A stretch of DNA of 49,239 bases, from NCBI GenBank assembly GCA_003135555.1, contig PLCF01000006.1, positions 1 to 49,239 of the forward strand, read 5' to 3'. The translations under genes and the position numbers were made by a program. Origin of the DNA: Vulcanimicrobiota bacterium (GTDB lineage Bacteria > Vulcanimicrobiota > Vulcanimicrobiia > Vulcanimicrobiales > Vulcanimicrobiaceae). Under the pieces are notes generated by a model that was given only the letters and a program-made list of their open reading frames with translations, searched no databases and was not told where the DNA came from. Below, one piece after another: positions 34,652 through 39,996 of this stretch (position 1 is its first letter; every line of letters starts with the position of its first letter).

Positions 34652-35095
34652 ACGTTCAAGGGATTCGGAGCGTTTCTCGCCCGGGGCAACGTGATCGACC
34701 TCGCCGTCGCGGTCATCGTCGGCTCCGCGTTCACGGCCGTCGTGAACGCGCTCGTCAAGGACATCCTCACGCCGCTCGTCGCGGCAATCTTCGGTCAGCC
34801 CGAGTTCTCTCGGCTCGGCTTCACCATCCGCAGCACGCACTTCCCCGTCGGCGATTTCGTCAACGCGCTCATCACCTTCGTGCTCGACGCTCTCGTCATC
34901 TACTACGTCATCGTGGTGCCGTTCCGCACCATCGCGGCGCGGTTCTGGAAGGCCGACGAGCTGGGGCTCGCGCTGAAGACCTGCCCGGAATGCCTCAGCG
35001 AGATCGCGCAGGACGCACGCCGCTGCAAATACTGCACGGCCGTCCTAGCGCGTCCCCGCGAACCCGGCGGTGCACCCGCCGCACCCACCGGCTAG
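34652..35095 (+). CDS. mscL: Large-conductance mechanosensitive channel with C-terminal zinc ribbon
   Basis: FLARGNVIDLAVAVIVGSAF; CPEC...CKYC tail; AAGGAGG RBS 5 nt before ACG-TTC-AAG. Confidence 0.9.
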   Translation, partial: TFKGFGAFLARGNVIDLAVAVIVGSAFTAVVNALVKDILTPLVAAIFGQPEFSRLGFTIRSTHFPVGDFVNALITFVLDALVIYYVIVVPFRTIAARFWKADELGLALKTCPECLSEIAQDARRCKYCTAVLARPREPGGAPAAPTG

Positions 35096-35168
35096 CGGCT
35101 CGCGCGCTCGACCCACCACATCCGGCCGACCTGCAGCCGCATCAGCGTTGGTCGGGCATCATTGCGCG

Positions 35169-36779
35169 TTAGTTCACGCGCTTTCCGCGGCCTTTCCATT
35201 CGCGCTCGCGCAGCACGTACTTCTGGATCTTGCCGGTCGAGGTTTTCGGCAGGTCGCCGAACTCGAACGTCTTGGGCACCTTGAACGCCGCAATCCGCGC
35301 GCGCATGAACTCTCGCAGCGCATCCGGCTCGACGCTGCGGCCCGATTTGAGCGTGACGAAGGCCTTAGGCACCTCGCCCCACTTCTCGTCCGGGACTGCG
35401 ACGACGGCGCACTCGAGGACGGCGTCGTGTTCGAGCAGCACCTTCTCGACCTGCTGGGTCGAGATGTTCTCGCCGCCGCTGATGATCACGTCCTTCGCGC
35501 GGTCGACGATCTCGATGTAGCCGTCCGGATGGCGCACCGCGACGTCGCCGGAATGGAACCAGCCGCCGGCAAACGCGCGCGCCGTCGCATCGGGGTCCGC
35601 GTAGTAACCCTTCATCACGTTGTTGCCGCGCATGACGATCTCGCCTTGCGCCGTGCCGTCGGCGGGTACGTCGTTGTGGTCGCCGTCGACGACGCGCACG
35701 TCGCCCGAGCCGAGCGTTACCATCGGCACGCCTTGGCGGCTGCGCAGCCGCGCGCGTTCGGCGACCGGGAGCCCGTCCCATTGCGGGCTGTGCCACGCGC
35801 ACTCGGTGATCGGGCCGTAGGTTTCGGTGAGGCCGTAGACATGATGGAGCTCGGCGCCGAGCGCTTCGATCTGCGCGATCGTCGCCGGGGCGGGCGGGGC
35901 GCCGGCGGTGGTCACGATGACGCGGTGCGGAAACGGCTTCGTGTCGGGATGGTTGACGAGGCCGATGAGCACGGTCGGCGCCGCGCAGAAGTGCGTCACG
36001 CCCTCGGCGTGCACGCCGTGATTGATGCCCGCGGCATCGACCTTGCGCAGGCAGATGTGGGTGGCGCCGGCGGCCGTGACGGCCCATGGAAAGCACCAGC
36101 CGTTGCAGTGGAACATCGGCAACGTCCACAGATAGACGCTCTCCGGCCGCAAGTTGGCGTGGAACGCTTCGGCGAGCGCGTTGAGGTACGCGCTGCGGAA
36201 GGTGTACATCACGCCCTTGGGCTTGCCGGTCGTGCCGCTGGTGTAGTTGACCGAGATCGTGTCGCCCTCGGCGCCGCTGCGCGGCTGCAGCGCCGCCGGA
36301 TCGGCGGCGGCGAGGAGCGCTTCGTAGTCGCGCGCACCGCCCGCCGCGACACGCTGCCCGACGGGTGTCACGCGGACGCCCGGCAGTTTTGTCGTCAGGC
36401 GTTCGACGAGGCCGTCGAGCTCGTGGTCGTGCAGCACGACCGAGGCGCCGCAATGGCGCAGGATGTAGTCGATCTCGTCGGGTGCGAGGCGCGTATTGAG
36501 CGCGCACAGCACGCCGCCCGCGAGCGGTACGGCATAGGTCGCCTCGAGCAGCATCGACGTGTTGGGCGCGAGGACCGCGACGCGCTCGCCGTTTTGGATC
36601 CCCATCCCCTGCAGCCCGGCGGCAAGCCGGCGGACGCGGTCGAGGAACTGCTGATACGTCCGGCGCTCCGACCCGTCGATGACGGCAAGCTTGTCGGGAT
36701 ACACGAACGCTGCCCGCTCGAGAAAGTCGAACGGGTCGAGCGCGCGCAGGTGAACGGCGGCGGTCGGTTCGGCGATCAT
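35169..36779 (-). CDS. Acyl-CoA synthetase (AMP-forming)
   Basis: [44 protein letters not shown]. Confidence 0.95.
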
Positions 36780-36861
36780 GCTGCACCGTTCGGCGCGCCA
36801 AATAGCGGTGCATTCCGCCGCGGAGCAGGACCGGCGCGCTCCCGGCGCTCAGAAGGCCCCC

Positions 36862-37362
36862 ATGGCAATCGAAAAGGGGCGCCGCTCGCGCGCCGCCGAG
36901 ACCCCGACCGTCAAGGTCGGCGATCCGGCGCCCGACTTCACCCTCAAAGCACATAACGGCGACACGTTTCACCTCGCCGAAAAGCGCGGGCACAACGTCG
37001 TGATCGCGTTCTACCCGCTGGCATTCACCGGAACTTGAAGCGCTCAGATGCCGACGTACGAGCGCGAGCTGGATCGCTTTCGTGCGCATGACGCCCAGGT
37101 CGTGGGCGTTTCGATCGATTCTCGCCCCGCCAACGCCGCTTGGGCCGAAAAGCTCGGCGGGATCAGCTATCCGCTGCTGAGCGACTTTTGGCCGCACGGT
37201 GCCGTCGCGCAAGCCTACGGCGTCCTGGGTCCGATGGGATTTGCCGAGCGCTCGATCTTCATTCTCGACAAAGACGGGATCGTGCGCTACATCGACATCC
37301 ACGAACCGGGCGAGGTACCCGACGAGGCCGTCATCTTCGAAGAGCTCGCCAAACTGGCCTAA
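36862..37362 (+). CDS. AhpE-type peroxiredoxin, selenocysteine-containing (UGA at 37036-37038)
   Basis: The two listed ORFs (to 37038 and from 37048) are in one frame; FYPLAFTGT-[TGA]-SAQM places the UGA at the PxxxTxxC peroxidatic Cys; LLSDFWPHG AhpE motif; no Cys elsewhere. Confidence 0.9.
37040..37065 (+). promoter_or_regulatory. Candidate bacterial SECIS hairpin
   Basis: GCGCTC(37040-45) pairs with GAGCGC(37060-65); upper stem AUG/CGU with CCGA loop; immediately 3' of the UGA. Confidence 0.65.
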
Positions 37363-37381
37363 ACCACCGTTAAACCCTATC

Positions 37382-37410
37382 TTGACCTCGCGTCGGGGGC
37401 GTGCTAGGGT
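37382..37410 (+). promoter_or_regulatory. Sigma70-type promoter of the blaI-M56 operon
   Basis: TTGACC-N17-TAGGGT with extended -10 TG; followed by imperfect palindrome 37415-37431. Confidence 0.7.
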
Positions 37411-37453
37411 GGCGTAAACCGAATTCGTTAGGTGTCCCGCTCGTGGAGGTCCG

Positions 37454-37840
37454 ATGGCTCGCCGGCGTTCCGTTCCGCTCACCGAGGCAGAGCAGCGGCT
37501 CATGGAGATCGTCTGGTCGGCCGGGCCGGCGACGGTCGGGCAGATCACCGATGCCATCCCCGAGTCCGAGCGGCCCGCGTACAACACCGTGCAGACGATG
37601 ATGAAGATCCTCGAGCGCAAGGGGTACGTGCAGCATCGCTCCGAGGGCCGCGCCTTCGTGTACCGGGCGGTGGTCGACCGCGACGCGGCCGTGCGCACCG
37701 CGCTGTCGCACGTGGTGCAGCGTTTCTTCGGCGGCTCGCCGCAAACGCTGGCGCTCAATCTGGTGCAAGGCGACCATCTCAGCGAAGAGGAGCTCGACGA
37801 GCTCGAGCGGACCATCGCCCAGGCCAAGGCGGACGCGTGA
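37454..37840 (+). CDS. BlaI/MecI/CopY family transcriptional repressor
   Basis: LTEAEQRLMEIVW, AYNTVQTMMKILERKG, GRAFVY, FFGGS; GGAGG RBS. Confidence 0.95.
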   Translation: MARRRSVPLTEAEQRLMEIVWSAGPATVGQITDAIPESERPAYNTVQTMMKILERKGYVQHRSEGRAFVYRAVVDRDAAVRTALSHVVQRFFGGSPQTLALNLVQGDHLSEEELDELERTIAQAKADA

Positions 37841-39996
37841 TGGACGCCTTGCTGCTCGCGGTGCTCAACGCGCTTTGGCAAGGCGCGGCGCTGATCGGGC
37901 TGGCCGCGCTGTCCCTTCGCGCCGGGTTGCGGCGCAACGCGACGACGGCGTGCATCGTGTGGAGCGCCGCATTCGGCGTGGTCGCATTGCTGCCGGTGAT
38001 CGATCTGGCCTTGGCGCGCCCCGGGGTCTCCGCCGGGTCGAGCCCCGGCGTGTACTACCGTCAGCCGGTAACGACCCGTGTGCCTGCGGAGGCAACCGCG
38101 GCCTTCGTCGTCGTCGACGGGCCCGCCGCCGCGCCGCGCGTCCCCGAACCGCTCCTCGCCGACTTGCCCGGGCCCTCGCTCTCCGACCGCTGGCACGACA
38201 CCGCGCTGGCCATCGGCGCCGCGGCCACCGCATTCGCTCGGAGCTGGGGGATCTTCGTCCTCGGCGCGTGGGCCGTCGTCGCCGGAGCGCTCGTTCTGCG
38301 CCTGGCGCGCGGCTACGCCGCGATCGCACGCATGAAGCGCGGCGCGACGCCGCTCGCCGATCCGGCGGTCCTGGCGCGCTTGCGCGCCGCCGGACATCGC
38401 CGGCACGCGGACGTGGCCTGCTCGACCAACGTCGAGATCCCGTGCGCGGTCGGATTCCGCCGGCCGATGATCCTGCTTCCGGCGGGGCTGGCCGCCTCGC
38501 TCGACGCCGATGACTTGGCGCGCGTGATCCTGCACGAGTCCGCCCACCTCCAACGCTACGACGACTGGACCAATGCCCTTGAGCAGGTCGTCTGCGCGCT
38601 GCAGTTCTTCCAGCCCGCCCTATACGTCGCACGGCGCGGGATCGACTTCGAACGCGAAGTCGCTTGCGACGACCGCGTCGTCGAAGACGCGGGCGAGCCG
38701 CTCCGCTACGCGGAGTGCCTGGCCCGCATCGTGCAGCGCCACCTGCGCGGACGGCAAGCCGCGGTCGTGCCGGGCTTCGTCCTGCGCCGCGCGCAGGTCG
38801 TGGCTCGCGTGCGGCGCATCGTCGATCGCTCCCGCGACGCGTCGCCACAGCTGCGGGTCGCCACGTTCGCGCTGGGGGCCACGTTGTTGGCGGCTACGCT
38901 GGGGATGGCGCGGCTGCAAGTCCCCGTCGTCGCGCCGGCCGTGGCCGCGCCGATCGTCGCCGATTGCAGCTGTCCCCCGGTCGCGCACCGCACCGCGCCG
39001 CGAGCGCTGGTAATGGCGCTGGTGCCGGCGCCGCACCCGCCTGCGCACGCAGTCGCCCAAGCTGCGGCGATCGCATCGCCCTCACCCTCACCGACGCCTG
39101 CGGTGGGGCGGCGTACTGCCGCGCACCCGTCCACCCACTCACGCACCCACTCGCACAGCCACGCGCACGCAAAATTGCACGCGCACAGCGATCTGGTCCA
39201 TTCGCAGGCAGACGTCGCGACCGACGCCGCGCCCGCCGCGGAAGAGCTGGCGCGCACGGCGGCGGCCCTCGCGGACGTCGCCGCCCAGGACAGCGCCATG
39301 GCACCTGCGATGGCACCTGTTATGGCGCCGCCGACGTCGACGCTGACGGTGACGGCCAGGAGGATCTCGTTCGCTCCGCTCGTCGCCGCTCGGGTGGCGC
39401 TCGAGAACGCATCGGCGACCTCTTTCACCGCACCGCGCCGCTTCGTGATCCTCGCGTCGTCCGGCGACGGCGGTGATCTGCTCGACGCCATCGACGGCGC
39501 GAAGTATCCGCATCCCAGCGTCGACGATCTGGTGGCGCTGCGCAATGCGGGCATCAGCGCCGACTACATTCGCCGGATGGGCGCACTCGGACCGAACCGC
39601 CCGTCGCTGCACCAGCTGCTCGCCCTCGCCCTGCAGAACGTCTCCCCGGCGTACCTTGCAACGCTCGATCGGCGCCTGATCTCACCGTCACTCGACGACG
39701 CGATTTCACTGCGCGTCCAGGGCGTCAGCGCGGTTTGGCTGGACGGCCTCGCAGCCGCCGGATACCAGCGCTTGACGCCCGCCGAAGCGGCGTCGCTAAC
39801 GGTACAGGGCGTATCGGTCGTGTACGTACGCGGTCTGCTCGAAGCCGGCTTGCGAAACGTCACGCCGCAGCAGCTCGCGGCGCTGCACGTGCAGGGCATC
39901 GACGGCCCGTTCGTGCGCCGCCTGGCTCAGCACGGCTATCGCAATCTCAACCTCGAAGAGCTCGTGCGACTCAAAGTGAGCGGCTTCGAACCGTGA
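37840..39996 (+). CDS. M56 (BlaR1-type) metallopeptidase with helical-repeat C-terminal domain
   Basis: NALWQGA, PCAVGFRRPMILLP, HESAH (HExxH), EREVACDD; C-terminal L..L...G(I/V)S..Y repeats. Confidence 0.92.
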   Translation: MDALLLAVLNALWQGAALIGLAALSLRAGLRRNATTACIVWSAAFGVVALLPVIDLALARPGVSAGSSPGVYYRQPVTTRVPAEATAAFVVVDGPAAAPRVPEPLLADLPGPSLSDRWHDTALAIGAAATAFARSWGIFVLGAWAVVAGALVLRLARGYAAIARMKRGATPLADPAVLARLRAAGHRRHADVACSTNVEIPCAVGFRRPMILLPAGLAASLDADDLARVILHESAHLQRYDDWTNALEQVVCALQFFQPALYVARRGIDFEREVACDDRVVEDAGEPLRYAECLARIVQRHLRGRQAAVVPGFVLRRAQVVARVRRIVDRSRDASPQLRVATFALGATLLAATLGMARLQVPVVAPAVAAPIVADCSCPPVAHRTAPRALVMALVPAPHPPAHAVAQAAAIASPSPSPTPAVGRRTAAHPSTHSRTHSHSHAHAKLHAHSDLVHSQADVATDAAPAAEELARTAAALADVAAQDSAMAPAMAPVMAPPTSTLTVTARRISFAPLVAARVALENASATSFTAPRRFVILASSGDGGDLLDAIDGAKYPHPSVDDLVALRNAGISADYIRRMGALGPNRPSLHQLLALALQNVSPAYLATLDRRLISPSLDDAISLRVQGVSAVWLDGLAAAGYQRLTPAEAASLTVQGVSVVYVRGLLEAGLRNVTPQQLAALHVQGIDGPFVRRLAQHGYRNLNLEELVRLKVSGFEP

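Follow-up and report, generated by a model that had tools for sequence, protein, structure and literature searches.

Background

PrxU of Eubacterium acidaminophilum (NCBIfam NF040737) is reportedly the experimental prototype of the peroxiredoxins that contain selenocysteine (Sec). In the accessible portions of the papers cited here and below, the bacterial Sec-peroxiredoxin family is listed as 'Prx, PF00578, TxxU' (Table 1 of PMC13188914), and a bSECIS hairpin is modelled with a loop of 3-9 nt, G at loop position 1 or 2, a UGA-to-loop distance of 16-37 nt and a free energy of -7.5 kcal/mol or lower (PMC13188914). The AhpE subfamily of peroxiredoxins is defined by the motif PxAF(T/S)xxC (PMC5302317), helix 5 carries the resolving Cys in some of its members (PMC4749874), and fatty-acid hydroperoxides are the substrates preferred by AhpE (PMC8945050). 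The Mycobacterium tuberculosis enzyme is reduced by mycothiol/mycoredoxin or H2S (PMC8113037), and the reductant of AhpE is an open question in Deinococcus too (PMC8945050).

The locus described here lies in a window of 49,239 nucleotides (contig PLCF01000006.1 of assembly GCA_003135555.1) from a Vulcanimicrobiota bacterium, and its features are collected in Table 1. A first-pass annotation, made from the sequence of the window alone, had proposed a selenoprotein gene of the AhpE type that is hidden by an in-frame TGA. The enzyme class and the Sec-peroxiredoxin family are already known; the new details are the host lineage, Vulcanimicrobiota, and the helix-5 Cys pattern of its Cys orthologues. 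Among the titles and abstracts listed in literature searches, none dealt with AhpE in a Sec form or with Sec use in Vulcanimicrobiota, and survey supplementary tables may list such genes as 'Prx'.

Table 1. Coordinates of the features at the peroxiredoxin locus and of the PrdB-like gene found beside related loci
Feature	Position	Strand	Remarks
AMP-binding acyl-CoA ligase gene	35169-36779	-	divergent, upstream, 82 bases from the peroxiredoxin gene
AhpE-type peroxiredoxin gene (predicted selenoprotein), 166 aa, ATG to TAA	36862..37362	+	sequence, PF00578, fold, start Met shared with orthologues
In-frame TGA, predicted Sec59, peroxidatic residue (P52-x-A-F-T56-x-x-U59)	37036..37038	+	codon 59; TGA/Cys alternation
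H1, hairpin of the first-pass annotation	37040..37065	+	overlaps H2; probably not the SECIS
H2, probable SECIS hairpin	37056..37085	+	lower (7 bp) and upper (4 bp) stems parted by a 1x1 mismatch; loop GCUGGA 37068-37073
Arg130 codon, conserved active-site Arg	37249..37251	+	aligns with the Arg of AhpE 'ANR'
Glu160 codon, helix 5 (155-163)	37339..37341	+	Cys at this position in all four genus Cys-type orthologues
BlaI/MecI/CopY-family repressor, then M56 (BlaR1-type) peptidase-domain protein	37454-39996	+	downstream
PrdB-like gene beside the Sec-peroxiredoxin gene	L047, L048, L050, L051, L053, L152, L153, L155, L159		TGG-U-PLC

Gene product and family placement

The gene was translated with the TGA read through, which gave 166 residues with zero Cys and hence, as the first-pass annotation had stated, no resolving Cys; the frame also continues for the 107 codons past the TGA described there, through the LLSDFWPHG and Arg motifs, with Arg130 present. 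The start Met is common to the orthologues at the close loci, and a domain search of the product placed PF00578 (AhpC-TSA) over residues 19-144 at 120.6 bits. Arg130 was invariant in 32/32 aligned sequences. An AlphaFold model built from an input of 32 sequences had a mean pLDDT of 92.4 and a thioredoxin-like peroxiredoxin fold. AhpE was the first PDB match by both sequence and structure, and the top 12 fold matches of the model were all AhpE (best match TM 0.86-0.87, rmsd 1.3-1.5, 41% identity). In the PDB sequence search, M. tuberculosis AhpE matched at E 4e-35 (2e-19 for the next family), and codon 59 fell on the Cys of its PLAFTGIC, in agreement with the first-pass assignment of the TGA at 37036 to the peroxidatic position of P-L-A-F-T-G-T-U.

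The peroxiredoxin signature Pxxx(T/S)xxC/U is present as P52, T56 and U59 together with the conserved R130, and the AhpE motif is present as PLAFTGTU; the latter occurs in 40/44 Vulcanimicrobiota Sec forms. The protein resembles M. tuberculosis AhpE (1XXU, 1XVW, 4X0X, 5ID2) in identity, in fold score, in this motif, in LLSDFWPHG and in having one redox residue, and differs from it in that Sec replaces Cys and that Gln, not Glu, stands three residues past the catalytic residue. This Gln62 aligns with the Glu of the AhpE 'CQGE', its mapping to the invariant Glu at signature position 14 being uncertain; the residue preceding U59 is Thr (Val in many orthologues), and the secondary signature of AhpE has Val/Ile there. 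'AhpE-type' is used as a safe label. The protein belongs to the listed Prx (PF00578, TxxU) selenoprotein family, with which the gene shares PF00578, PxxxTxxU and a UGA followed by a 3' hairpin in the coding region. Membership in the PrxU equivalog was considered and rejected, the protein scoring 68.6 bits against the curated NF040737 cut-off of 270; unlike PrxU, it belongs to a shorter (166 aa), separate subfamily with no Cys.

The best explanation, given a probability of about 0.94, is that the gene is intact and that its TGA is read as Sec at the active site of a recoded AhpE-type peroxiredoxin. The frame, machinery, conservation, fold and hairpin behind this reading come from computation and the chemistry from the family. 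Hairpin H2 would recruit SelB and Sec-tRNA(UCA), Sec would be inserted at codon 59 to give the 166-aa peroxiredoxin, and the selenolate of Sec59, kept in place by Pro52, Thr56 and Arg130, would, by analogy with the family, reduce H2O2, organic hydroperoxides or peroxynitrite and pass to a selenenic acid. Since the protein has no Cys, an external thiol or selenol would have to resolve this selenenic acid. Judged by the criteria for bacterial selenoproteins, the machinery, the conserved UGA at the catalytic Cys position and the model-fitting 3' hairpin all point to a selenoprotein.

Gene neighbourhood

The divergent acyl-CoA ligase gene was found in 17/30 loci (the window and 16/29 others), and a promoter region shared with the peroxiredoxin gene is possible. 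Downstream, a BlaI-family repressor occurs in the window and 12/29 other loci, and an M56 protein in the window and 10/29; in the genus the pair often neighbours the peroxiredoxin gene. No reductant or partner gene was found at the locus in the window. Two long ORFs that overlap these genes (35365-38553 on the - strand and 35070-36956 on the + strand) gave no Pfam match and are taken as GC-rich shadows. A promoter/terminator scan gave nothing above chance, and the Rfam search gave nothing credible, its one match scoring 18.6 bits against 95.4.

A peroxiredoxin that has no resolving Cys and lies in a locus without a reductant gene could act mainly as a redox sensor, relay or persulfide carrier rather than as a bulk peroxidase, and AhpE can be persulfidated, passing sulfur on (PMC8113037). 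Such a role is considered improbable: the active-site motif and Arg130 are intact, and the neighbours (the acyl-CoA ligase and the BlaI/M56 pair) differ among relatives, with no common signalling partner. The predicted function is that of a peroxidase working like AhpE, by analogy with the family.

Probable recoding hairpin

Two overlapping hairpins follow the TGA. H1, which the first-pass annotation had taken as the SECIS, and H2 are mutually exclusive, with bases 37056-37065 in common. Both were judged with an in-house script applying the published bSECIS rules. H2 fits the consensus model (PMC13188914, Fig. 2A), with a 6-nt loop that has G first and a spacer of 29 nt after the UGA, but its upper stem has just 4 bp before the 1x1 mismatch and its register varies between clades. 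Its free energy was -14.1 to -17.8 kcal/mol (z -2.6 to -2.7), and it was favoured over H1 when at least 52 nt were folded. H1 can form, at -12.0 kcal/mol, but breaks the bSECIS rules as a SECIS, its CCGA loop being 12 nt from the UGA and lacking G at both of the first two loop positions. Against dinucleotide shuffles H1 did not stand out (z -1.25, with 24/200 shuffles as stable); against synonymous-codon shuffles, which kept the amino acids and the codon bias of the gene, it was stable in the window's genome (z -2.6).

Folding stability was then compared among homologues using the same synonymous-codon shuffles. The H2 region (+10..+54) reached p<0.05 in 33/43 Sec versus 4/65 Cys homologues and the H1 region (+1..+28) in 5/43 Sec and 4/65 Cys homologues, the regions having been chosen after these data were viewed and L055 and L056 having been removed as duplicates; among the close Sec loci the H1 region reached this level in 4/26. 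With the regions fixed beforehand, 15/17 held-out Sec loci reached p<0.05 for H2 and 0/17 for H1; this set comprised 19 further loci minus L169 (frame broken near the contig end) and L170 (a frameshifted second copy). When 14 offsets along the 43 Sec genes were compared, mean z was lowest at +9 (-2.3), the H2 position, and next lowest at +30 (-1.3).

Codon choice and pairing within the genus were also compared. Three codons that are uncommon in this genome, GAT (21%), TTT (12%) and CGT (8%), contribute the U to three A-U pairs in the H2 of the window, and at these three sites the 21 genus Sec genes use GAT for 10/10 Asp, TTT for 10/16 Phe and CGT for 10/18 Arg codons. The loop G (+30) is kept in 18/21 genus sequences and 85% of the cells in the H2 alignment are paired; covariation is weak, with two-sided change in 2/12 H2 pairs, a level reached by 26-36 of 500 shuffles. 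In H1, three central pairs are disrupted in about half of the 21 genus sequences, compensation was seen in none of them, and no two-sided change occurs. A single consensus hairpin for all phyla was also sought and rejected, RNAalifold returning 0 pairs and no common structure across phyla from 31 sequences, as a result of pairing registers that differ from clade to clade.

A reading in which Sec is inserted, with H1 as the SECIS or with H1 and H2 alternating as a switch, draws on the stability of H1 in the window's genome and in those few close relatives and on the bases by which each hairpin excludes the other. It is nevertheless quite improbable on account of the short distance from the UGA, the missing loop G, the uncompensated breaks in its central pairs, its lack of excess structure in the held-out loci and the preference for H2 in longer folds. 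The working recoding signal is most likely H2, as far as folding and sequence comparison indicate.

Conservation of the TGA codon

Orthologues were collected from a close set of 61 genomes, of which 31 were matched. The 34 matches comprised 28 with one TGA, one with two and five with none, and 30 of them were recovered as loci. Codon 59 was TGA in 26/30 of these, a count that includes the window and one locus from the unpublished genome G032, and TGC in 4/30. Of a wider set of 80 named loci from many phyla, 18 had TGA and 62 encoded Cys, with no other codon. The Cys/UGA alternation among orthologues that the first-pass annotation had proposed looking for was thus found in both the 30 close and the 80 wider loci.

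An even draw of 201 genomes of the phylum gave 28 matched genomes, 26 of these with one TGA; eight of the 28 (G000, the window's genome, included) are of genus g1 or family f2 and partly overlap the first set. The phylum matches have 55-78% protein identity and a frame open downstream of the TGA. Between them, the close and held-out sets supply 43 distinct Vulcanimicrobiota loci with this TGA in the catalytic position, although this and the other counts of loci and relatives are overstated because kin are not independent. A contig from another study (X4, record 3, 36897-37092) spans the TGA, and the sole difference among those listed is at 36994; as this independent contig covers the codon and differs elsewhere, the TGA is not an assembly slip.

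A plain caller splits the ORF into an upstream piece that ends at 37038 and a 104-aa piece that starts at 37048, at an in-frame ATG four codons past the TGA. As the first-pass annotation had expected of standard callers, the 58-aa and 104-aa halves stand as separate entries in the public protein collection, from which the full-length protein (C for U) is absent. The best named matches were from Ca. Elarobacter sp. (75% identity) and other Vulcanimicrobiota/Eremiobacterota, and the window's genome is most likely a member of Ca. Elarobacter. The separate entries and the ATG would suit two small proteins, a nonsense pseudogene or a sequencing error. All three are highly improbable, given the recurrence of the TGA at the catalytic codon in the 43 Vulcanimicrobiota loci, in the independent contig and in other phyla, and given that neither half contains the catalytic residue. 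Reading the gene as intact and recoded corrects an annotation error by which a peroxiredoxin had stayed hidden in much of a soil-bacterial order, as the 28/201 matched genomes and their 26 TGA forms indicate.

On a quick tree with 108 rows, rooted at the midpoint and without bootstrap, the label (Sec or Cys) switches 6 times versus 34 in shuffles. The Cys pair L041 and L046 was placed inside the genus Sec clade of this tree, a position that suggests one change or more from Sec to Cys; the accessible portion of the table in a 2006 survey gives no such change for Prx (PMC1794560).

Selenocysteine machinery and code usage

The window's genome (3.57 Mb, 84% complete) was searched for the genes of Sec insertion, which the first-pass annotation had suggested as a check. 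All were present above the curated cut-offs: selA (488 bits), selB (278 bits), selD (377 bits) and tRNA-Sec (73.5 bits). The tRNA-Sec is on contig C91 and has the anticodon TCA (UCA in mRNA-type letters), and selA and selB adjoin behind a WCGPC thioredoxin gene on C38. This trxA-selA-selB arrangement is a single same-strand run (G000:C38:7729-11263). The selD gene (C98, near 20799, - strand) has an in-frame TGA of its own with a bSECIS-fitting hairpin.

Across the close set, selA was over the cut-off in 53/61 genomes, two of them marked unpublished, and was matched in 33/33 genomes at least 90% complete. Genomes with a Cys-type orthologue keep selA, in pieces in the case of G029. That genome has one gene copy of the Cys type and a second, frameshifted one with TGA (L170), besides a selA in three pieces, a pattern of either ongoing loss of the Sec trait or long-read errors. 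Together with the conserved UGA, the machinery supports the use of Sec in this lineage as first proposed, and Sec use is thereby placed in Vulcanimicrobiota.

TGA is otherwise an ordinary stop codon, terminating 535/1016 long high-GC3 ORFs in the genome, and with a Sec-type tRNA as the sole TCA-anticodon tRNA called, codon 59 alternating with Cys only and no support found for the opposite view, the chance that an altered code or suppressor reads TGA as Trp, Gly or Cys is negligible.

Other probable selenoproteins, given here as examples (C59, C45 and C47) and not as a census, were found in the same genome. The formate dehydrogenase alpha subunit (C59, near 536, - strand) has an in-frame TGA in ARV-U-HGP with a model-fitting hairpin and is likely a selenoprotein. 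A codon-usage screen for selenoprotein genes gave one lead, on C45, and is no census either, since it missed the known positives (the peroxiredoxin gene and selD). The C45 gene (G000:C45 near 57979, - strand; L171:1019-1582, - strand) encodes a thioredoxin-fold/TPR protein with PG-U-GGC, an in-frame TGA and a bSECIS-fitting hairpin; no NCBIfam model was over its cut-off for this protein.

Helix-5 cysteine

A Cys within helix 155-163 was found in 4/4 genus Cys orthologues versus 1/44 Vulcanimicrobiota Sec forms. Outside the phylum it was found in 0/16 Sec and 3/61 Cys forms, so the link between the helix-5 Cys and the Cys form is local. In this feature the genus Cys orthologues are like those 2-Cys members of AhpE whose resolving Cys lies in helix 5 (PMC4749874), while the protein of the window has Glu160. 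Four sequences on two branches lend thin support to a return from Sec to Cys accompanied by a gained helix-5 Cys. Naturally occurring pairs of Sec and Cys forms, which share 60-66% identity and differ in having the helix-5 Cys or not, would allow the benefit of selenium to a one-residue peroxiredoxin to be compared, and they bear also on recycling without glutathione, mycothiol or bacillithiol.

Reductant and possible partners

Genes for small-thiol synthesis were sought in 16 genomes. The bshC gene and gshB, the glutathione-synthesis gene sought, were each found in 0/16; mshC was over its cut-off in 0/16, setting the lineage apart from the mycothiol/mycoredoxin system of M. tuberculosis AhpE (PMC8113037), and all 16 have a lower-scoring match that is probably cysteinyl-tRNA synthetase. 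Thioredoxin reductase and thioredoxin are encoded in the window's genome, along with three glutaredoxin-like genes and one CMD/AhpD-family match. As a matter of judgement, not measurement, the tentative first choice of reductant is a small redoxin of the glutaredoxin/NrdH kind that is supplied by thioredoxin reductase, with a CPYC redoxin on contig C47 as the first candidate; thioredoxin itself and a small thiol (CoA, cysteine and H2S are examples) are both rated somewhat less likely, and an AhpD-like protein or another reductant is unlikely.

The C47 gene (near 1130, - strand; L149) encodes a glutaredoxin-like protein with a terminal TGA followed by T-V-Y-stop (a G-U-T-V-Y tail), and a strong model-fitting hairpin has its GGUC loop 20 nt on. 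A C-terminal Sec is probable from these features. The best model for this partial sequence was the Uxx-star family, under the cut-off (53 vs 66 bits). The redoxin was found in 13/21 genus genomes with the Sec gene, 0/4 with the Cys gene, 4/12 with neither and 0/5 genomes of f2. This co-occurrence is a weak hint among kin, and with just 13/21 having it beside the Sec gene and 4/12 having it without a close match, the redoxin is not an obligate partner.

In family f2, a PrdB-like gene with its own TGA adjoins the Sec-peroxiredoxin gene in 5/5 loci, and the same neighbour was found in 4/19 further loci. The TGA was read in four of the f2 loci, and the protein scored 185 bits against the TIGR04483 cut-off of 300. 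A PrdB-like query gave no match in G000 and matched 1/36 genus genomes; within the limits of a genome that is 84% complete, the PrdB-like protein is therefore not the partner here. PF07355 matched nowhere in the genome, and neither did its control.

It is conceivable, although unlikely, that selenium replaces the resolving Cys and that another selenoprotein recycles the enzyme in cells with no small-thiol buffer. This idea derives from the helix-5 Cys gained with the change from Sec to Cys, the glutathione, mycothiol and bacillithiol synthesis genes that were sought and not found, and a set of seemingly interchangeable partners, namely a fused CxxC redoxin in Chloroflexota, the adjacent PrdB-like selenoprotein in the sister family and possibly the unlinked C47 CPYC redoxin of this genus, which has a C-terminal UGA of its own. 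If true, bacteria of soil and peat would possess a peroxide relay that runs from selenium to selenium.

In Chloroflexota, the majority of Sec forms carry a fused CxxC redoxin domain, and the C47 redoxin is the best match in the window's genome to that domain (36% identity). One Chloroflexota Sec-peroxiredoxin, L068, continues for 544 residues past the TGA and is far longer than the usual redoxin-tail fusion.
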